In this document: positions 1-9,262 of the stretch, one piece after another
How the letters are laid out: each line of letters begins with the position of its first letter
How positions within the stretch are numbered: position 1 is the stretch's first letter
Virus record (IMG/VR): IMGVR_UViG_648276670_000008
Span: 1 to 24,154 of that record
Length of the DNA: 24,154 nt
Direction: 5' to 3' (one strand)
Source: a virus
Lineage: Duplodnaviria; Heunggongvirae; Uroviricota; Caudoviricetes
The notes under the pieces: model-generated
Seen by the model: only the letters and a program-made list of their open reading frames with translations
What the model was told of the DNA's origin: nothing
The model's database searches: none
Program-made: the position numbers and the translations under genes

Positions 1-1158
1 ATGCTCACCGTTAAACAGATTGAAGCAGCAAAGCCGAAAGAAAAACCATACCGCCTACTCGATGGTAATGGCCTGTACCTTTATGTCCCTGTATCCGGAA
101 AAAAGGTCTGGCAGCTTCGCTACAAGATTGACGGTAAGGAGAAAATCCTGACCGTAGGAAAATATCCGCTAATGACTTTGCAGGAGGCAAGAGATAAAGC
201 ATGGACCGCGAGGAAAGACATCTCGGTTGGCATCGATCCGGTAAAAGCGAAAAAGGCTTCGTCTAACAACAATTCCTTTAGTGCGATTTACAAGGAATGG
301 TACGAGCACAAGAAGCAAGTCTGGTCAGTAGGCTATGCAAATGAACTTGCAAAAATGTTTGATGACGACATTTTACCTATCATCGGCGGCCTTGAAATTC
401 AGGATATTGAGCCGATGCAACTACTGGAAGTAATCCGCAGATTTGAAGATCGCGGGGCAATGGAGCGAGCCAACAAAGCCCGCAGAAGATGCGGCGAGGT
501 TTTCCGTTACGCTATTGTCACTGGTAGGGCTAAATATAACCCGGCACCTGACCTTGCAGACGCCATGAAAGGATACCGCAAGAAGAACTTCCCGTTTCTT
601 CCTGCAGACCAGATCCCGGCATTCAACAAAGAGCTGGCAACATTTTCAGGAAGTATCGTATCGCTCATTGCCACCAAGGTTTTACGCTATACAGCCCTAA
701 GAACGAAAGAGCTTCGTTCCATGCAATGGAAGAACGTCGATTTTGAAAACAGGATTATCACCATCGACGCCAGTGTGATGAAGGGACGCAAAATTCATGT
801 GGTCCCGATGTCAGACCAGGTGGTTGAACTTCTCACTACGCTAAGCTCTATCACCAAACCAGTATCAGAGTTTGTTTTTGCCGGGCGCAACGATAAGAAA
901 AAGCCAATCTGCGAGAACGCGGTGCTACTTGTGATCAAACAAATCGGCTATGAAGGTCTGGAAAGCGGTCACGGATTCAGGCATGAATTCAGCACGATTA
1001 TGAACGAGCACGAATGGCCCGCCGACGCCATTGAAGTGCAACTGGCACATGCTAACGGCGGTTCTGTGCGCGGGATTTACAACCATGCTCAGTATCTCGA
1101 TAAGCGCAGAGAAATGATGCAGTGGTGGGCGGACTGGCTTGATGAAAAGGTGAAGTGA
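1..1158 (+). CDS. int: Tyrosine integrase, P4-like family (site-specific recombinase)
   Basis: 385-aa ORF starting with ATG at nt 1. The N-terminus (MLTVKQIEAAKPKEKPYRLLDGNGLYLYV...WQLRYKIDGKEK) has the arm-domain pattern of P4-type integrases. The C-terminus has an H-x-x-R box (GHGFRHEF) and a likely tyrosine nucleophile in VRGIYNHAQYLDKR. The N-terminus looks complete although the gene begins at the window edge. Confidence 0.9.
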   Translation: MLTVKQIEAAKPKEKPYRLLDGNGLYLYVPVSGKKVWQLRYKIDGKEKILTVGKYPLMTLQEARDKAWTARKDISVGIDPVKAKKASSNNNSFSAIYKEWYEHKKQVWSVGYANELAKMFDDDILPIIGGLEIQDIEPMQLLEVIRRFEDRGAMERANKARRRCGEVFRYAIVTGRAKYNPAPDLADAMKGYRKKNFPFLPADQIPAFNKELATFSGSIVSLIATKVLRYTALRTKELRSMQWKNVDFENRIITIDASVMKGRKIHVVPMSDQVVELLTTLSSITKPVSEFVFAGRNDKKKPICENAVLLVIKQIGYEGLESGHGFRHEFSTIMNEHEWPADAIEVQLAHANGGSVRGIYNHAQYLDKRREMMQWWADWLDEKVK

Positions 1159-1395: not shown

Positions 1396-2463
1396 ATGAA
1401 CAGAAATAATTCATTCGATATTGCAAGACATATTGCTGCGCTAGCTGTTATTTTCAGCCATCACTTTGCATTCAATGGCATTCCTGAACCAAAAGTTTTA
1501 GGAATAACAAAACTTGGAACCTTTGCTGTTTTAGTTTTTTTCTCTATATCTGGGTATCTAATTGCAGGAAGCTATCTAAATAGCAGTTCTTTACAATCAT
1601 ACTATACAAAGCGTATAAAAAGAATCTTTCCAGCACTAATAGTATGCTCATTTGTCATGATATATATCATATGCCCTATTTTCGGTACAGGAAATGGCAT
1701 AGACTACATCTTATCAGAGAATGCATTTATTGCATTTTTAGACTACTCAACTCTTGGTTGGCATCCAAGCGACATAAATGGATTTGCCAGTAACTATATT
1801 CATAAGAATATGTTAAATGGAAGTTTATGGACTCTTGGATTTGAGTTTACAGCCTATGTGTTATTATCAATAATTTTATTTAGAAAGAAAAATATCATAG
1901 CATCAACATTTTTTGCTATTTGCTTTTTTATTGTTATCCAGTTATCCATTTTGAATGGCATAAAAATACCTCACACAGGTGATCTTAATAGGCTATCTCT
2001 TCTATGCACTACGTTTTTATGTGGTTCTTTGTTATATATTACAAGAAGTTATTGGTCCACAACAAGTGCAAAAATCACTCTAATAGTATTAGCTTTATCA
2101 TGTGCATTATTTATAAGTGAAAAAAATGAATATGATCTAATGTTTTATATTTCTGTTCCATTCTTTATAGTTCCATTATGCACATTGTTTACAGACAAAA
2201 TAATCAACGGCAAGTTTGATATATCTTATGGGATGTATATTTATGCTTATCCGATTCAGCAAATAATTGTAAACAAAGCTAACCTAGGATTTTATGGTTC
2301 ACTGTTTACGTCTTTATTATTAATAATTATTTTAGCTTGCGCATCGTGGTTACTTATTGAAAAGAGATTTTTGGTAAAAAGTAAAAGAAAGCAAAGGAAA
2401 TGTCGCATGTATGTTAAGCACTCTCTTATCTGCACATTGTATATATTGGTGAGCATTATATAA
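1396..2463 (+). CDS. Acyltransferase family 3 integral membrane protein, putative O-antigen O-acetyltransferase (Oac/OafA-like)
   Basis: 355-aa, very hydrophobic multi-TM ORF with ATG start. It carries AT3-type motifs (VLVFFSISGYLIAGSY and RIKRIFPAL) and a size close to phage Oac. The coding sequence is very AT-rich. Confidence 0.8.
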   Translation: MNRNNSFDIARHIAALAVIFSHHFAFNGIPEPKVLGITKLGTFAVLVFFSISGYLIAGSYLNSSSLQSYYTKRIKRIFPALIVCSFVMIYIICPIFGTGNGIDYILSENAFIAFLDYSTLGWHPSDINGFASNYIHKNMLNGSLWTLGFEFTAYVLLSIILFRKKNIIASTFFAICFFIVIQLSILNGIKIPHTGDLNRLSLLCTTFLCGSLLYITRSYWSTTSAKITLIVLALSCALFISEKNEYDLMFYISVPFFIVPLCTLFTDKIINGKFDISYGMYIYAYPIQQIIVNKANLGFYGSLFTSLLLIIILACASWLLIEKRFLVKSKRKQRKCRMYVKHSLICTLYILVSII

Positions 2464-2633
2464 TGTATTATTGTTGCAGCCTGATACATTATAAAGCAGA
2501 CATTTATGCTTGATGTTTTTTAGGTGTTGGTTTTCATAATTCACAACCACACACGTATAACAAACATTAAGACATATCGTCCAAAAGATAGTTTATGTTA
2601 CAATTTTAAAGAATAAACTTAAGATAATTGCAT

Positions 2634-2948
2634 ATGTTCAAAATTTTTTTAAAAGGAACCAGCGTACCAAAAGAAATTCTGTCCTTTCACAGGAGAAGTC
2701 ATGAAAGCGTACTTCCAAAGAGAGTAGAATTTACAAGAGCTGTTCTTATAACAGAAAAATATGGCGAGATCCATGTTAGACCAATTTATGGAATATTAAA
2801 AGCAAACAGTATTTACATTGATGAAATTGGCGGATGTATAGTAAAAGGCGGTATTAATGGTACAATTATTCACAACCTGCCAATATTTAACTTACCATCA
2901 ATAACAATAATGTTATTAATTGTAGCTTTGGCGTTAAATTATGTTTAA
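2634..2948 (+). CDS. Hypothetical protein (weak call) in AT-rich spacer
   Basis: The ORF-track start at 2628 is TTG; the first ATG is at 2634, giving 104 aa. There is no convincing Shine-Dalgarno. The stop overlaps the wzx-like start by 8 nt. No recognisable family. Confidence 0.2.
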   Translation: MFKIFLKGTSVPKEILSFHRRSHESVLPKRVEFTRAVLITEKYGEIHVRPIYGILKANSIYIDEIGGCIVKGGINGTIIHNLPIFNLPSITIMLLIVALALNYV

Positions 2949-4176
2949 TAAATTTGCTGTCCTCAGAAATTTTGCATCGCTAGGGTTAATGCAGGTCATT
3001 AACTATGTGCTTCCTATTGTTATAATACCGTTCCTGGTTAATAAAATAGGAATTTATAATGTAGGCTTAATTGCAACATTCACCGCCATAGCGGCATATA
3101 TGCAGCTAGTTATAGATTATGGCTTCAATCTTTCTGCAACAAGAAATATATCAAAGGACGGATATGATGATTATCATGCATCGATAATAAGCAGTTCTGT
3201 TTTTGTCATAAAGGTGACAATGTCATTAGCATTAATTGCATTATCATTTTTCATTATGAAATTGGCGTCAAACTCAGAAGAACATATAATAACATTTATG
3301 TTTACAGTTGGCATTGTTGTTTTTCAGTCTTTATTTCCAGTTTGGCATTTTCAAGCCGCAGAAAGAATGCACTACATAACAATGTGTAATGGTGTACCAA
3401 AATTGATATCAGCCTGCATGATTTTTTACTTTGTAAGCTCTCCAGGTGATACATGGAAGGTGCAGGCATGCTTTATGTTAGGAGCCGCAGCATCTTTTAT
3501 TTTATCTTTGTTTATTTTGAAATCTAAATTTAATTTTAGGTTATTGATATCATTCACTGAATGCAAAAATCAGATTATTGATGGGTATGCTATTTTTTTA
3601 GCACGATTGGCGTCAGGGCTATACAAAAATTTCAATGTGCTTATTCTCGGAGCATTTGCTGGAACTGCGGCAGTAGGAACTTATTCTATCGCAGAAAGAA
3701 TAATAAGAAGCGCTCAAATGGTTCAGAATGTAGTTGGTGATACTCTTTACCCTTTATTCTCTAAAGAATTTACTGGCAATAAATTATTTTTCAAACACGC
3801 AGCAGATAAATACAAGTGGCATATAATAATATTTTACACTCTTGCATCACTAGCTATTTTCTACCTCTCTGGAATAATTGGGAAAATAATGGGTGGGGCA
3901 TCAGCAGATAATGTATCCTCTTGCCTTAAAATAATGTCAATCGCCTTTCTTTTTGGCGGGATGAACTACGTTTTAGCTATACTTGGATTAACATCTTGTG
4001 GGTATGCCAAACAATTTTCATTGTGCGTAATATCGGCAGGTTTGTTTAATGTTCTATGTGCTACTTTTTTATCTTTTTTCTTTTCTTATTATGGAACTTC
4101 AGTAGCTCTTGTTTTAAGCGAGTTTTTTCTCCTTTGCTTTGTTATTTTTTATTCTAAAAGGACTGGTATACTATGA
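2941..4176 (+). CDS. wzx: Wzx-like polysaccharide/O-unit flippase (polysaccharide biosynthesis protein, MOP/PST superfamily)
   Basis: 411-aa multi-TM protein. The N-terminal region (LMQVINYVLPIVIIPFLVNKIGIYNVG) resembles the conserved Wzx/PST N-terminus. Very AT-rich. Its stop overlaps the downstream GT2 start (ATGA at 4173-4176). Confidence 0.75.
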   Translation: MFNKFAVLRNFASLGLMQVINYVLPIVIIPFLVNKIGIYNVGLIATFTAIAAYMQLVIDYGFNLSATRNISKDGYDDYHASIISSSVFVIKVTMSLALIALSFFIMKLASNSEEHIITFMFTVGIVVFQSLFPVWHFQAAERMHYITMCNGVPKLISACMIFYFVSSPGDTWKVQACFMLGAAASFILSLFILKSKFNFRLLISFTECKNQIIDGYAIFLARLASGLYKNFNVLILGAFAGTAAVGTYSIAERIIRSAQMVQNVVGDTLYPLFSKEFTGNKLFFKHAADKYKWHIIIFYTLASLAIFYLSGIIGKIMGGASADNVSSCLKIMSIAFLFGGMNYVLAILGLTSCGYAKQFSLCVISAGLFNVLCATFLSFFFSYYGTSVALVLSEFFLLCFVIFYSKRTGIL

Positions 4177-5066
4177 CTCCATTTACTACTGTCTTGGTTA
4201 CATATGCTGATAGAGGCCACCTGTTAAAACAAGTTGTATCATCAGTAGTATCATCCGGGTGTGATAATATAATTATTATAGATAATGGGAGTCATGAGAG
4301 TAGCAAGAAAATAATAAACTCGATGCCTGTTAATTATAGTGACATAAAATTCACTATTCATAAAAATGAAAAAAATGAAGGCTCCGCGATTGCATTCGGC
4401 ATTGGGATGGATCTGGCATCAAGTAATGAAAACAAAAATGAAATAGTGTTATTTCTGGATGATGACAATCTACCTAAAGATGGAGCAATTCAAGATGCCA
4501 TCAAATTCTCATTGTCAGATAATGAGAATAAAAATGTTTACTTTTTGCTCCGTGAAGACAGGCCGCACTATATTGAATTTGTAAGAACAAAAAACCAAGA
4601 TGTTCTCCTTGGAGAAAAAAACTCTTTTATGTCATTCACTTTGAAAAAATACTTAAAAAGCATAGTAAATAAGCTTAACAAAACAGAAATACAAGAAAAG
4701 TATGATTCATTCAGCGATAGTTGCATTCAAATCCCTTGCGGTCCATACGGAGGAATGTTAACAAAAAAATCAATCTTATCCAATGGGATAAGACCATTCA
4801 AAGATATGGTGTTATATTTTGACGATACAAAATATACTTATGATCTATCATTATCTGGAGTAAAGCTATTTCTTTTGACAAAATGTTTCATTAATGATAT
4901 TGATGATTCATGGTCAGCGGTTAAAACAAAAAAACATCCTCACCACTCTTTGAGGCTGGTGAGTTTAAAATATCACATACAATTAGAAATAGGGTGTTTT
5001 TTGAACTTTACGCGACAACAAACAATGTGCCAATATATGTTGTTAATATATTTTTCTTCATGTTAA
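4173..5066 (+). CDS. Glycosyltransferase family 2, WbbL-like (soluble, cytoplasmic-face type)
   Basis: 297-aa ORF. N-terminal GT-A pattern (TTVLVTYADRGHLLKQVVSSV...IIIIDNGS), a DxD-like LFLDDDN motif, and a C-terminal region resembling WbbL-type rhamnosyltransferases (GGMLTKKSILSNGIRPF...VLYFDDTKYTYDLSLSGVKLF). No C-terminal TM anchor of the GtrB type is evident. Translationally coupled to wzx. Confidence 0.7.
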   Translation: MTPFTTVLVTYADRGHLLKQVVSSVVSSGCDNIIIIDNGSHESSKKIINSMPVNYSDIKFTIHKNEKNEGSAIAFGIGMDLASSNENKNEIVLFLDDDNLPKDGAIQDAIKFSLSDNENKNVYFLLREDRPHYIEFVRTKNQDVLLGEKNSFMSFTLKKYLKSIVNKLNKTEIQEKYDSFSDSCIQIPCGPYGGMLTKKSILSNGIRPFKDMVLYFDDTKYTYDLSLSGVKLFLLTKCFINDIDDSWSAVKTKKHPHHSLRLVSLKYHIQLEIGCFLNFTRQQTMCQYMLLIYFSSC

Positions 5067-5149
5067 TTTTGTTTGTAAAAGCTTTGACATCTAATAACAT
5101 GAGAACATTTTTGAAAATATCAAAATATATCATTGATGGTGTTAGGTTT

Positions 5150-5178
5150 TATAAAGAAAAGGCCCACTAAGTGGGCTT
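5150..5178. terminator. Bidirectional intrinsic terminator between convergent GT2 and tailspike genes
   Basis: GC-rich inverted repeat GGCCCAC-TAA-GTGGGC(T) at 5161-5177, flanked by an A-run upstream and TTTATCT downstream on the plus strand. On the minus strand the stem is followed by TTTTCTTTAT, so it fits best as the tailspike terminator. Confidence 0.5.
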
Positions 5179-5188
5179 TATCTGAATA

Positions 5189-7093
5189 TTAAAACTCTGG
5201 AGCATACGTTCCTGAGACAAAAATAGTGGCACCCAGTGATTTAATAAAATCAGGTTTCACCAGAAGGCCACGCAAAGATACGGCAACCCATTTGCTGGTT
5301 TGAACGTTTGCTGCCTGTACCAAAGTTTTTGTAGTTGAGGGAGCATACACACCAACAGTTGCCTGCGGGTCTTCTAACGTTGTAGTGGTGTAATAAGATG
5401 CTATTGGTATTCTGGTTGTATGACCATGAGTTAATGTGACATTCCCATTTCCGGTTGGTTCTGCATTGACAATTGATGATACCCAAGATGGTGGTATTGT
5501 AGGGGGTCTCCCATACCTAATCTCCCCAGTATCTACATTAACTATAATTTCTAGATCTGCGTAGATTGACACTCGTAAGTTGTAGTCTTTCCCTACGTTG
5601 AACCTGTCAGCAATTGCGTAAAGTCCGGTAGTAAGAGATGATCTATCCATGTCCGCAGTGAAGTCAAACCAACACGCTGCGTTATCAGAAACTGTAAATA
5701 AAAGAGAGTTATCATCTTCAGCCACAGCAACCTTACAAAAATTAGAAGGACGAATGACGCCAGTATCGTTATTAATATTTAAAATTTGCCATGATGAGCT
5801 CGAAGATGCATAACGCGCGGCAGCTGCGCAGTGTTTTGCTCGTAACCAAGGAGCGATGCCATTTGCCGTATACTGCATAAAGTCATTGACTGTCTTTGTC
5901 TTTGTTCCTCCAGCTTCCACTGACCAGAGTCCTCGGGCAGCGCCAGCCCCCATTGTGTTATAACCTTTTTGGGTATAATGCACACCTTCTGTACCAACGT
6001 TTCCATCGCGATTCAAAAAAGATGGGCAGCCATCAAAAGCTGTAACAGCAATATCTCTACCATTGACAACGTAACGCTGTGCGTTTTGAATAGTTTGCCA
6101 AGAATATTCTGGTCTATTTTTAGGGCACCCTACCGTACAGTTCGCGAATCTTGCCATAGGTATATCTGAAGATAGATCATCTATAAGTTTCACGAAAAGT
6201 CCGCGATAAGTATCAAATGATGTGCCATTTAGTTGATCTGTTTCCCCTTGGTGGAAAAGAACGTATACTTTACCTACAGGAAGCTCCTGAGTATTCATTC
6301 TTGCAAGTGTGTTATTAACAGACGACACCAAAAGCTCATAATAACCATCACCAACTGGTGATTTAGATAATTGAGAAATTGATGTTGCTCCACGTCCACA
6401 ATGTACAACTACAGCTCCCCTTCCGCTTAAACGATACCATTCATTGGCAAACTCCCCCCAGGCATGCCCTGAGGATGCAACTCCCGATGAACTAACCATA
6501 TTCTGAATTATTGGCTTTATAGTTCCATCCCTGAAATCGTACATTAACGATTTTGGAAGAGGGTCAGGAAAGCCAGATGTATCACCTGATAAAATAGCCT
6601 CGCCTGCACTATTTGACTGCCCATACGTAACAAATATATCGTATACATCTGGTGACTCAAGATATTCTGTCGCAATAACATTACTTGCTATTTTTGATGC
6701 TGTTACTCCAGATATTATTGCTGAACTATTATTTTCTGATAGCCTTCTTTCTAATTGATCTGGATCATACTTCAATACATTTGGAAAATAGAACTGCTGC
6801 GAACCATACGCATCATAAACAGCCATAGAATGTCCTTGCACGGTAACGAACTTGGCAATCTGTCCGTTATATACCGGATATCCAGCAGCGTTAATGGTGA
6901 TTGGTTGAGAAACAGGAACGTGAGAACCGTCCTCGCTCTCCATATAAACCTGAATCTGGTTTTCAGGATTTACAGGATCAGTGTCAATCTGACCGATATA
7001 AATTTTACCATTGGCATTAGCTTTAAATGAACGAGATAAAGTAAATAATTGACTTGGTTGCGATACAACGATATTTGGCGTGATATCTGGCAT
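5189..7093 (-). CDS. 9: Tailspike protein: P22 gp9-type head-binding domain fused to a SASA/SGNH-type esterase-like receptor domain
   Basis: 634-aa ORF with ATG and GGAG Shine-Dalgarno. The first ~115 aa closely match the P22 tailspike N-terminal head-binding domain as I remember it (…[24 protein letters not shown]…TVQGHSMA…NVLKYDPDQ). The remainder is unrelated to the P22 beta-helix and carries esterase-like motifs GQSN (158-161), QGETD (282-286) and a His in GVHYTQ (372). Confidence 0.9.
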
Positions 7094-7195
7094 TGATTTG
7101 CTCCTGGCATAGAAAAGCTGTGTAAGATATAACTTTCACAGACTTGCATTAAATTCGGTTAAAATTAGTTAATTACTCTGGGTGGAGGGTTGGCT

Positions 7196-7273
7196 ATGCA
7201 AAGAGATATGCTGAATATTGCGTTCTACATATTTGGTTTTTGCACGTTCCTGGTGTTTGCGAAGCTATTCTGA
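7196..7273 (+). CDS. Candidate small hydrophobic peptide (25 aa), speculative
   Basis: ATG at 7196 preceded by a strong GGAGG Shine-Dalgarno (7184-7188, 7-nt spacer). It encodes MQRDMLNIAFYIFGFCTFLVFAKLF, a single predicted TM helix. Below the ORF-track size cutoff. Convergent with gene 16 and overlaps its 3' end by 9 nt. Confidence 0.25.
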   Translation: MQRDMLNIAFYIFGFCTFLVFAKLF

Positions 7274-9262
7274 CAACGCATCAGACTTGGTACCCTGAGT
7301 CAGGGCGTTAATGGCCTTTTGCGCCTGCTGCATGGCTTTCTCAAACGCTGTTGATCCGCGTGGTGTGTTTGCCATTCGGAGCATTGCATTTCTGAATGGC
7401 TCGCTCTCATAGGCGCGAGTAAGAAGTCCGTAGCTTACCGCTGCGCCAGTTGTCGCCGGGTTCATTGCTGTCCCATACCCGATAATGAACGGGATGGTTT
7501 GCTGCCCTGTTGGTGTTGTTACTGCCGCTTTTGCAGCCTGCTGCGTGGATTGCAGGTAGTTTTTCAATCCTTTCAGATAAGCAGCGTCCTGCCCCTTAAA
7601 TGTGATGCCAGTCTGGTTTTGCAGGATGTTAAGCTGTAGAAGGAACTGATCAGGGGAACCACCTGATTTCTCCATCGCCTTTCCAATGATGCCATTGCGC
7701 ATTTGTGCCCTGCCAACACGACCAACTGAGTTATACAGCGTCTTAATTTCAGATTTGTTCTTGCTGAATAGCATGTTATTGACAACTTCCGGCGTCAGGT
7801 CGCCTTTCATGAGAACATTCTTCAGCCTGGTATTCTTTAGTTTCGCCGCTTCGTCAGCGTAGACGGCATTGGCCTGCTGATATTTACGGAGAGTATCGTT
7901 GCCAAGATTCTGACCAATGGCACCATTGATATCGTCGGTCATTGCCTTGTAAACGCGCTGAATTGCGGCATCGGAACGGTTTGGTAACACTGGTCGCTCA
8001 CCCTTCACGTCCATTCTGAACTGGCTGCGCAGATCGCTTAACTGCTTCAAATCCAGATTGACCGGACCATCAGGACCAACATTGCGAACAAGCTCATCAC
8101 GATATGACTGAAGTTTTGAAATCGTCTCATTATCAGCGACCTTACCAAGCTTCTGCAGGTTAGATATTTCTGTATCAATCTGCTGAATTGCTCGCGCAGG
8201 CTGAATGTTTACTCCAGCCATAGCATTCTGAACCTGCTCCAGTCGATTACCGGCAGCACGACGAATTCCTGATGTTTTCGCTTTAAGGCTGTCAATAACA
8301 ACTGCCGGATCGTACTCGCCGAATTTATCGGCAAATCTCTGCACCAACTGGCTTCTCGCTTCCTGTTGCGTTGCTCTCATTCCGCTTGTGCCAGCCAGAG
8401 GGATATTTTCCGCTGTCGTCTGCGCCATTTTACCGATGCGGGAAGTCGGTTGTAACAGGTCTGTGGTGTGCAGAGGCACGCCTTCACGCTCTGCAAACTT
8501 GATAGCCTGTTGCGCTTCGGGTGATATCGAACCACGAACACCACGATAAGCAGCACCTAATCCACGTCCGGCAGCGTTAATAGCACCGCCAGCCAACACA
8601 CCAACGCCTAAATCGGTGGCGAGTGCTTCCGCATCATCTTTCGCACTATTTGCAGCAAGTGATCCAACTGCGTTTTCTGCCAGAAGGCGAGTTGCCCCCT
8701 GAGCGATTCTACCAGCGAGTGTTGGTGCCTGTGTTGCCGCTCTCTCAATGCCAGCAGGAGTGAGGTAAGGCAATGCTTCAGCAAATACCCTTCCCTCTGT
8801 CGTTTGTGGAGTCAGCGCGCCTTGCTGAAGGCCAAAGTCCTGCTCTAATCCCTGCGTTGTTACTCGTGGCGCTGGTTGATATGTACCATCGCCAATGCCG
8901 AGTTTACCGCCAGCCCAAGCCGCCGCGCTTGTTACAGCATCGGCGACTGATGCAGGTATGTTTGCCACGTTCACGCCAGCCTGCACCAGTCCGCGACCAG
9001 TCTCTTTTACTGCTTCGCCAAGATCAGACATAAATCCACTTTGCTGTGGTTGTTGCTGTGCTACTGGTTGCTGTGTCTCCACTGGCTGCACAGATGGCAA
9101 TGGATAGGCAGCATAGAAAGCTTGCTTAGCCTGCTCTGCATTTTCTCCGGCTTGCGGGGCCACGACTTCATTGAAGTATTGCTCCTGAGCCTGCGCTTTT
9201 TGTTCTGGTGCTAACGCCTGATACTGTGGAGAGGCGATAACATCTTTCCATGCTTTAGCCAT
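7265..9262 (-). CDS. 16: Ejection (E) protein, P22 gp16-like
   Basis: 665-aa ORF in the position and order of P22 gene 16, with ATG overlapping the gene 20 stop (TAATG). Gly/Ala/Gln-rich composition typical of ejection proteins. Confidence 0.85.
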   Translation of the reverse strand: MAKAWKDVIASPQYQALAPEQKAQAQEQYFNEVVAPQAGENAEQAKQAFYAAYPLPSVQPVETQQPVAQQQPQQSGFMSDLGEAVKETGRGLVQAGVNVANIPASVADAVTSAAAWAGGKLGIGDGTYQPAPRVTTQGLEQDFGLQQGALTPQTTEGRVFAEALPYLTPAGIERAATQAPTLAGRIAQGATRLLAENAVGSLAANSAKDDAEALATDLGVGVLAGGAINAAGRGLGAAYRGVRGSISPEAQQAIKFAEREGVPLHTTDLLQPTSRIGKMAQTTAENIPLAGTSGMRATQQEARSQLVQRFADKFGEYDPAVVIDSLKAKTSGIRRAAGNRLEQVQNAMAGVNIQPARAIQQIDTEISNLQKLGKVADNETISKLQSYRDELVRNVGPDGPVNLDLKQLSDLRSQFRMDVKGERPVLPNRSDAAIQRVYKAMTDDINGAIGQNLGNDTLRKYQQANAVYADEAAKLKNTRLKNVLMKGDLTPEVVNNMLFSKNKSEIKTLYNSVGRVGRAQMRNGIIGKAMEKSGGSPDQFLLQLNILQNQTGITFKGQDAAYLKGLKNYLQSTQQAAKAAVTTPTGQQTIPFIIGYGTAMNPATTGAAVSYGLLTRAYESEPFRNAMLRMANTPRGSTAFEKAMQQAQKAINALTQGTKSDALSE

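Follow-up and report, generated by a model that had tools for sequence, protein, structure and literature searches.

The stretch of viral DNA analysed here, hereafter the window (24,154 nt), is part of a P22-like (Lederbergvirus, Sf6-like) prophage, and it raises the question of what is encoded between its gene 16 and its tailspike gene. In phage P22 the counterpart interval, between genes 16 and 9, carries sieA and immI. The initial annotation had stated this, correctly by the P22 map, and had put the interval in the window at only about 170 bp, which is close to the 171 bp that we measure. Here, on the strand opposite the late genes, it had picked out a 25-codon reading frame as a candidate small peptide with a single transmembrane (TM) segment. 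The question is whether this frame is a gene and, if so, what its product would do. Homologues of gp20, gp7 and gp14 lie further along the minus strand of the window, and the features discussed below are collected in Table 1.

Table 1. Features of the window on either side of, and within, the gene 16-tailspike interval.
Feature	Position (nt)	Strand	Remarks
Integrase	1-1158	+	
O-antigen modification cluster	1396-5066	+	
Tailspike gene	5189..7093	-	P22 head-binding domain and SASA esterase domain
Gene 16-tailspike interval	7094..7264		171 bp
Late-strand RNA hairpin	7118..7141	-	Arms 7118-7126 and 7133-7141, loop 7127-7132
TTGCAT	7144..7149	+	TTGC invariant in 55 distinct intervals from several genera (columns T55 G56 C57)
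TAAAAT, -10-like box	7160..7165	+	Aligned with the near-invariant GTTATAAT of the 23-aa class; TATGAT in Sf6
Shine-Dalgarno GGAGG	7184..7188	+	7 nt before ATG
Very probable 25-codon gene, peptide MQRDMLNIAFYIFGFCTFLVFAKLF	ATG 7196-7198 to TGA 7271-7273	+	From sequence and conservation
Gene 16-type DNA ejection (transfer) protein, 665 aa	7265..9262	-	phrog_770, E = 3e-238
gp16 codons 593-605 (IIGYGTAMNPATT)	7448..7486	-	Aligned with BTP1 gp16 residues 583-595

Every detail first given for the frame (plus-strand ATG, GGAGG, 7-nt spacer, 25 codons) matches the sequence, and it is, as was also claimed, convergent with gene 16 and overlaps its 3' end: the last 9 nt of the small frame cover the gene 16 stop codon and the two codons before it. 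In the predicted peptide a few polar residues at the N-terminus (MQRD) lead into a single hydrophobic helix, an arrangement that recurs in the family described below as a polar MxRD head and about 20 hydrophobic residues. Its best 19-residue Kyte-Doolittle window scores 1.84 (the range given for the product overall being 1.84-2.35), and this hydropathy is compatible with a single TM helix. Nine ORFs of at least 20 aa overlap this 270-nt stretch, and a 25-codon ORF is by itself unremarkable; the small frame stands above chance because it is conserved, with intact frames and a coding-type pattern of substitution. Database searches were silent on it. PHROGs, Pfam and NCBIfam gave no family match for the peptide, Rfam held no family matching the locus, an exact look-up among some 15 billion predicted proteins returned no entry for any 23- or 25-aa variant, and none of the records that we examined annotates the small gene. 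The P22 gene called orf25 was considered as the same gene and rejected, being located at 40329-40406 between rha and orf80 and encoding the unrelated MSGLDNGLYHRLDIIRFIPSMWGGG.

We sampled the 25-aa class in IMG/VR by the last 24 nt of gene 16, which avoids bias towards the ORF itself. The class comprises E. coli/Shigella loci and Sf6, and among its 126 anchored loci the ATG lies at codon -25 in 125, while the frame is intact in all 126, with zero indels and 38 peptide variants. Variation by codon position follows the order 3>1>2 (142/73/50), and in the adjacent gene 16 sequence its maximum is at the plus-strand position corresponding to the wobble of gene 16 itself. Counting substitution events on a minimum spanning tree gave 34 synonymous and 47 nonsynonymous events (dN/dS about 0.49, p = 0.0014), none of them involving a stop, and the small frame scores best of the six frames. 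The hydrophobic half of the peptide varies little even at wobble positions. The initial annotation had named conservation of the reading frame in related phages as a check on its proposal, and the frame is indeed conserved, at the same gene 16 locus.

In phages with a gp16 C-terminus about 73% identical, the same place is taken by a homologous frame of 23 codons. Members of this second class include the Salmonella phages L (MNRDLLNFAFLIFGIVVGRLLFA), BTP1 and MG40 (both MERDLLNFVFLIFGLVVGKLLFA), together with Citrobacter, Kluyvera, Erwinia, Atlantibacter and other representatives; ST64T-like phages are also among the many Salmonella phages that carry the small gene. A protein-based scan limited to one genome per species found the frame adjoining every gp16 with an ...ALSE C-terminus, usually behind GGAGGATTT, in hosts comprising E. 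coli, two other Escherichia species, Candidatus Erwinia dacicola, Pseudescherichia, Atlantibacter, Citrobacter and Kluyvera, and the family as a whole was found in at least eight genera. When loci of the 23-aa class were retrieved by their own gene-16-end anchor (n = 109), the ATG was at codon -23 in every one, all frames were intact without indels, and 36 peptide variants were present. Taken together, the two classes give 235 phage or prophage loci, with the ATG at the same codon in 234.

Selection is stronger in this second class. We counted 209 synonymous and 73 nonsynonymous events, distributed over codon positions 1/2/3 as 57/17/208, which gives a dN/dS of 0.13 (p = 3e-58) against 0.49 in the 25-aa class; the gene 16 control from the same loci also has a dN/dS of 0.13. 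Across 55 distinct sequences of the 23-aa class there were 326 substitution events with zero stops and zero indels. The Arg-3 codon is AGA, CGA or CGT in different genera, and codons for Leu, Asn, Ile, Phe and Gly likewise vary synonymously. The 23- and 25-aa peptides, with 74 variants in all, have their N-terminal 14 residues in common and differ in the C-terminal half. The family motif is M-x-R-[DN]-x-L-N-[FIL]-[AV]-F-x-I-F-G, after which comes a hydrophobic tail with LF at its end, and synonymous codons vary at the conserved residues. The window peptide follows this pattern (MQRDMLNIAFYIFG...KLF), and it has the position of the family too, opposite the late operon with its stop overlapping an Sf6/L/BTP1-type gene 16 end (by 9 nt in the window, 12 nt in the 23-aa class). 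Purifying selection on the amino-acid sequence was found in both classes. The 23-/25-aa family is physically locked to one lineage of P22-type gene 16. Within the 23-aa class, covariation between peptide and gp16 was uninformative (r = 0.15 for the target segment proposed below, 0.19 for a nearer segment).

No frame but the small one is open throughout both classes. We also considered the antisense (late-strand) ORF as the true gene. Its start is not conserved, its dN/dS is 0.29 against 0.13, and, though open in the 23-aa class, it runs into stops in 53 of the 54 sequences from the 25-aa class; having no conserved start, a worse score and stops in one class, it is a shadow frame. Within the surrounding 800 nt (the region equivalent to STnc6030, below), the strand of the small frame carries no further ORF that is conserved in position, start or length. 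We consider it very probable, on this comparative evidence, that the small frame is a protein-coding gene, and the earlier suggestion of a small single-TM peptide thereby gains support both from conservation and from the single hydrophobic stretch.

The small gene also behaves as a unit with respect to what lies upstream. A megablast search of 5,426 complete E. coli genomes found a match in 275, and about 260 of these match only from window position 7194/7195 rightwards, so that the homology breakpoint is the ORF's ATG. Intact copies of the small frame stand behind four unrelated upstream contexts. Directly after mnt, an Arc-family gene, the arrangement is GGAGGATTT-ATG (67 of the 126 IMG/VR loci, with IME10 and strain ET665 as examples), and here the small gene starts 20 nt after mnt; in 35 loci it follows a gene for a 161-aa lipoprotein (phrog_6067; VSe13, 720R6, Gally), 20 have an Sf6-type short interval, and the window's own short interval is rare (3 loci). 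Across unrelated upstream contexts the ATG is repeatedly preceded, at 4-7 nt, by GGAGG or GAGG, with similar boxes in other genera. Most of the four contexts supply a Shine-Dalgarno-like purine run, with a clear GGAGG only in the mnt context and in the window; the sequence upstream in BTP1 is GGAGGGTTT-ATG. An origin as the remnant of a larger gene, such as a sieA C-terminus, was rejected on the homology break at the ATG, the invariance of that ATG and the lack of similarity to P22 SieA.

The mnt context bears on expression. In P22 lysogens the mnt promoter, in immI, is active and Mnt is made. A small gene in this context would be co-transcribed from the mnt promoter and, since it lies 20 nt after mnt with a GGAGG of its own, the small peptide would be made constitutively in lysogens. 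For the BTP1 homologue a transcript has been observed directly, with a mapped start 406 nt upstream of the small gene, antisense within the first 310 nt of the tailspike gene; for the mnt-linked copies prophage expression is probable from their position.

Signals for the window's own copy are less clear-cut. The short interval of about 100 bp is conserved across genera, and every variant of its -10-like box, at 22-30 nt before the ATG, retains A at position 2 and T at position 6, the key positions of a -10. This box may be a promoter element of the small gene. A search for a -35 at 16-18 nt from it found none acceptable, and a promoter scan of the window interval returned no sigma-70 promoter. 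TTGCAT cannot serve as the -35 because it lies only 10 nt from the -10-like box, which is not sigma-70 spacing; this agrees with the first reading of the locus, in which TTGCAT had been noted without a well-spaced -10, and adds that the conserved TATAAT-like box is only those 10 nt away. Two other candidates were set aside: a promoter match at 7022-7049 is not conserved in Sf6 or BTP1, and the -35 of the BTP1 STnc6030 promoter (TTGAAT) is not conserved in the window.

The late strand of the interval has a conserved element of its own, a hairpin in which 93.4% of cells are paired, against 29-56% in slid controls. G-U pairing is possible on the late strand alone, three pairs show compensatory changes, and RNAalifold independently predicts the same helix. 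Lying between the small gene and the tailspike Shine-Dalgarno sequence, it belongs to the late (tailspike-sense) transcript and not to the small gene. A strong hairpin directly after the ORF stop was found in BTP1 only (-18 kcal/mol, z = -2.8), and not in the window, phage L or Erwinia, and the terminator scans were empty. We found no conserved RNA structure following the ORF, no dedicated small antisense RNA or structured 5' leader conserved at the locus, and no conserved promoter/terminator pair opposite the ORF, the sole antisense transcript there being late read-through.

What the small gene might do is suggested by prophage BTP1. Homology and synteny make the window locus a member of the one published as STnc6030. 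That transcript of 786 nt, strongly expressed in lysogens (D23580 minus strand 403942-404727), was described as a non-coding antisense RNA excluding BTP1 and was called non-coding only on the absence of an ORF longer than 60 aa (Owen et al. 2020, Microb Genom 6:e000330; PMC7067206). The BTP1 23-codon homologue (L132 2013..1942, minus strand; chromosome 404321-404250) lies inside this transcript. Because the published cloning primers map to L132 2419 and 1634, a 786-nt fragment, the expressed STnc6030 clone contains the 23-codon gene together with its GGAGG. The non-coding classification fails, since the transcript holds an ORF and Shine-Dalgarno sequence under selection as strong as that on gene 16. 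A 2025 review still lists STnc6030 as an asRNA, and our literature search found no proposal of a peptide as its effector.

The plasmid carrying STnc6030 gave total immunity to BTP1 and none to P22, while induction and yield of the resident prophage were unaffected, which the authors could not explain (PMC7067206). These exclusion data concern the whole 786-nt BTP1 fragment with the 23-aa Salmonella member, and so peptide and RNA together. Four SNPs that escape STnc6030 cluster at 404041-404078, the 787-bp region being the only part of the escape phages that was sequenced (PMC7067206). All four are nonsynonymous and fall in gp16 codons 583-595 (ILGIGTVTNPALV), a glycine-rich hydrophobic stretch, although four of four is not significant alone (about 0.3 by chance). 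In P22, gp16 substitutions at P546 and G532 confer escape from SieA, an inner-membrane protein which the prophage expresses and which prevents injection of DNA (Hofer 1995; Leavitt et al. 2024, mBio 15:e02169-23; PMC10883804). When the gp16 C-termini are aligned, P546 lies inside the STnc6030-escape segment and G532 seven residues before it, and the corresponding window codons, 593-605, include the position aligned with P546. The C-terminal region of P22 gp16 (476-609) has been considered unnecessary for membrane association in vitro (Leavitt et al.; PMC10883804).

We propose that in the lysogen the small gene yields an inner-membrane peptide of 25 residues and one helix. Its expression would come from the prophage strand that faces the late operon, in most E. 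coli relatives as the gene after mnt and in BTP1 from the promoter antisense in the tailspike gene. From its place in the cytoplasmic membrane the peptide would interfere with the hydrophobic, glycine-rich segment at the C-terminus of an incoming gp16 and so keep phages with a cognate gp16 from delivering their DNA; codons 593-605 of the window's gp16 would be its target, and STnc6030 would be the mRNA of the 23-aa homologue. We put the probability of this full mechanism, a minimal lysogen-expressed inner-membrane exclusion peptide acting on incoming gp16, at roughly 0.55. The published STnc6030 facts fit a SieA-like entry block by a membrane peptide and fit an antisense mechanism less well, without amounting to proof, and exclusion appears to be the best-supported function of the small gene.

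The main competitor is the published model, in which a cis-antisense RNA acts against incoming gene 16 and tailspike mRNA, and in which either the peptide is a real lysogen-expressed membrane protein with a role of its own or one RNA has both functions. STnc6030 runs antisense to gene 16 and the tailspike gene, is abundant in lysogens and is specific in excluding BTP1; the escape SNPs fall in the region complementary to its 3' part, P22 lacks complementarity and is not excluded, and in every context transcripts reading past the ORF would be antisense to gene 16. The published experiments are formally equally compatible with an RNA effector, and complementarity to its own phage is built into any cis-antisense RNA. 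However, the model leaves the unaffected induction of the resident prophage unexplained, and it requires a single mismatch in several hundred nucleotides of perfect complementarity to abolish the effect. The main Northern bands are about 480-500 nt and not 786 nt (PMC7067206); the BTP1 ORF stop lies 478 nt from the transcript start, and this dominant species would stop short of the proposed RNA 'seed' at 649-686 nt. Nor is synonymous variation reduced at the 'seed' codons across the family (19.8 versus 17.2 events per codon). The escape site, moreover, coincides with that for a protein, SieA, and the transcript contains an ORF selected as strongly as gene 16. We regard RNA as the effector as unlikely.

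Another reading is that the peptide resembles type I toxins or serves abortive infection at the membrane. The lysogen would keep it silent until infection or induction released or activated it, and its antisense partner would be the late transcript that converges on it. The peptide is like Hok, Ldr, TisB, Ibs and ShoB in size, hydrophobicity and possession of a single helix, and its ORF converges with a long antisense (late) transcript that overlaps it. A silent toxin is nonetheless hard to reconcile with the position of the ORF 20 nt after mnt with GGAGG in most E. coli relatives, and the locus has no conserved dedicated small antisense RNA or structured 5' leader. Constitutive expression of the STnc6030 fragment from PLlacO-1, with the strong native Shine-Dalgarno sequence, gave normal lawns and normal spontaneous phage yields (PMC7067206); no growth defect was reported at whatever peptide level this gave. 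We judge a toxin improbable. The initial annotation had offered a membrane toxin or an exclusion peptide, and of the two it is exclusion that is strengthened, by the homologue inside BTP1 STnc6030, whereas the toxin is weakened by the normal lawns and prophage yields. Less probable again is that the act of translation matters rather than the peptide, the ORF serving as a leader-like or coupling element that modulates convergent transcription or the stability of the gene 16-tailspike junction. The overlap with the gene 16 stop and the proximity of the conserved late-strand hairpin and tailspike Shine-Dalgarno sequence would suit such a role, but the amino-acid sequence itself is under purifying selection (dN/dS 0.13) with a conserved motif, and the ORF is kept where hairpin and tailspike leader are replaced by mnt or the lipoprotein gene. 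Finally, the frame could be untranslated, its conservation reflecting a nucleic-acid function or recent common descent, as the scarcity of wobble changes in the hydrophobic half of the 25-aa class might be taken to indicate. The codon-position pattern, the dN/dS values and their p-values, the 326 events in 55 distinct 23-aa-class sequences without a stop or indel, the switching of Arg codons between the AGA and CGN families, and the lack of any Rfam match or of conserved structure after the ORF all speak against this, and we give it the lowest probability of all.

If the peptide is the effector, the published case of RNA-mediated superinfection exclusion needs re-interpretation, DNA-entry exclusion is achievable by a helix of 23-25 residues, a minimal tool becomes available for probing how gp16 crosses or opens the cytoplasmic membrane, and a widespread unannotated prophage gene is added to the small-protein catalogue. 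The peptide would then be among the smallest exclusion factors known, and its gene, by overlapping that of the presumed target, would in an unusual manner hold defence and specificity determinant together through mosaic recombination. Even under the RNA model the small gene is real. We would give even odds to a broader statement: that in P22-like prophages 'antisense RNAs' of the STnc6030 type are really mRNAs, and that they encode the smallest exclusion proteins known, inner-membrane peptides of 23-25 residues that neutralise the membrane-inserting C-terminal segment of gp16, each welded by an overlapping stop to its gp16 allele. The family, invisible to every annotation pipeline, occurs in some 5% of complete E. 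coli genomes as well as in many prophages of Salmonella, Citrobacter, Kluyvera and Erwinia.

Among known systems the closest is STnc6030 itself. [quoted passage not shown] It differs in having a protein-coding frame as its conserved element, where STnc6030 was described as non-coding RNA, and in that the window member has 25 rather than 23 aa, another C-terminal half and no conserved -35.

The small peptide resembles SieA in map position, in its likely membrane location, in probable type-specific exclusion and in the gp16 escape site. Like sieA, the small gene lies directly after gene 16 on the opposite strand, and the SieA escape mutations fall in the gp16 segment homologous to the STnc6030 escape site. 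SieA, however, is a protein of 162-164 aa with three TM helices predicted and, on the cytoplasmic side, an FxRYPxEAxxFNK motif (PMC10883804), whereas the peptide has 25 aa, one hydrophobic stretch, no such motif and no sequence similarity to it. SieA accompanies P22-type gp16 and the small peptide Sf6/L/BTP1-type gp16, and escape from SieA additionally needs changes in gp20. Since the features that define SieA proteins (about 160-200 aa, 3-4 TM helices, FxRYPxEAxxFNK) are absent from the peptide, it is an analogue of SieA and not a member of that family.

Type I toxins share with the peptide its length, hydrophobicity and overlap with antisense transcription, but their dedicated antisense antitoxin, with promoter and terminator, has no counterpart here, and in most relatives the ORF follows mnt with a strong Shine-Dalgarno sequence. 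HK97 gp15 and T4 Imm are small prophage-encoded blockers of phage DNA entry, and MgrB, AcrZ and MgtS are small bacterial TM regulators; all five are single-pass inner-membrane proteins of roughly 30-85 aa that bind a larger membrane-active partner. We know of no sequence relationship between the peptide and any of them. If the exclusion role holds, the small gene would plausibly join the prophage inner-membrane entry blockers.

On the late strand, the strand in the sense of the tailspike gene, a conserved RNA hairpin lies between gene 16 on one side and the tailspike Shine-Dalgarno sequence on the other, and is followed by UUUGCU. In alignment A4, paired cells made up 93%, compared with 29-56% in slid controls; compensatory changes are present, and the G-U pairs form on the late strand only. 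The hairpin might weakly terminate transcription internally, serve as a site of processing, or stabilise the tailspike message.

The opposite strand of the interval carries two further conserved elements. Across 55 distinct intervals from several genera (alignment A3; window 7144-7165, + strand), TTGC is invariant and a GTTATAAT box, present in the window as TAAAAT, is near-invariant. TTGC lies upstream of the box by 10 nt, a spacing that is unfit for a sigma-70 -35/-10 pair.

In BTP1, the final codons of the small ORF hold the beginning of a strong hairpin, whose far end lies some 500 nt from the 5' end of STnc6030, the published antisense RNA (Owen et al. 2020), in agreement with the ~500-nt Northern band of that transcript. 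Neither the window nor phage L nor Erwinia conserves this hairpin.

Features of the interval and of the compared loci
Feature	Location	Strand	Details
Strong hairpin	BTP1 (L132) 1915-1950	-	-18 kcal/mol, z = -2.8
Conserved RNA hairpin	window 7118-7141	-	9-10 bp; A4 columns 60-69/76-85
161-aa lipoprotein	L008 1996-2481; also in L007, L009	+	lipobox LLAGC; phrog_6067
84-aa ORF	Escherichia sp. ESNIH1 (L138) about 1750-2005	small-ORF strand	MNNSISNLRDVCRTVNALNNSPQNINTSGVKGVTFCQSRNKWQAQINVAGKNITLGRFDSIDEAAIAYKA...
31-aa peptide	Rahnella rivi (L145) about 2100-2195	-	MFFLQCLAIAFVIWMFADSFYDAWRQGKNKR
31-aa peptide	Pantoea MAG (L148) about 2073-2170	-	MFLLYAFAFFIAVWAIADSIYDAWLQSKGRR
DH5alpha-labelled match H23	NZ_CM135829.1		E. 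coli genome set
DH5alpha-labelled match H143	NZ_CP026085.1		E. coli genome set
P22 'orf25'	BK000583 40329-40406 = L130 21330-21407		annotated; 25 codons

Beside more distant gp16 genes (52-56% identity), the convergent position of the small gene is held by a different peptide of 31 residues, with an N-terminal TM helix, a good Shine-Dalgarno sequence and a stop 1 nt off from the beginning of the gene 16 stop codon. The Rahnella rivi and Pantoea MAG peptides may form a second, analogous family. P22 orf25, which served as the CamR insertion site in Casjens-lab strains, was rejected as a counterpart of the small gene: it is equal in length and unrelated in sequence and position, so that its name is a trap.

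The end of gene 16 and the small ORF also occur, at 98.4% identity, in two assemblies in RefSeq that bear the label E. coli DH5alpha. As a P22-like prophage is unexpected in a K-12 derivative, these matches may reflect mislabelling or lysogenisation.

Within region 1396-7093, the window's tailspike, which contains at residues 151-387 a carbohydrate esterase domain of the SASA/SGNH type, adjoins a cluster encoding an Acyl_transf_3 acyltransferase, a Polysacc_synt (Wzx-like) flippase and a GT2 glycosyltransferase, which suggests that the lysogen acylates or glycosylates the O-antigen and that the virion de-acylates it.

In 35 of the 126 loci the lipoprotein gene immediately precedes the small gene on their common strand. 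It stands in the position of the P22 exclusion gene sieA and may be a second exclusion or moron gene. The ESNIH1 ORF, whose product looks AP2/HNH-like, would be one more upstream context: it spans −352 to −97 relative to the small-ORF ATG, about where BTP1 has the 5' end of its tailspike gene.
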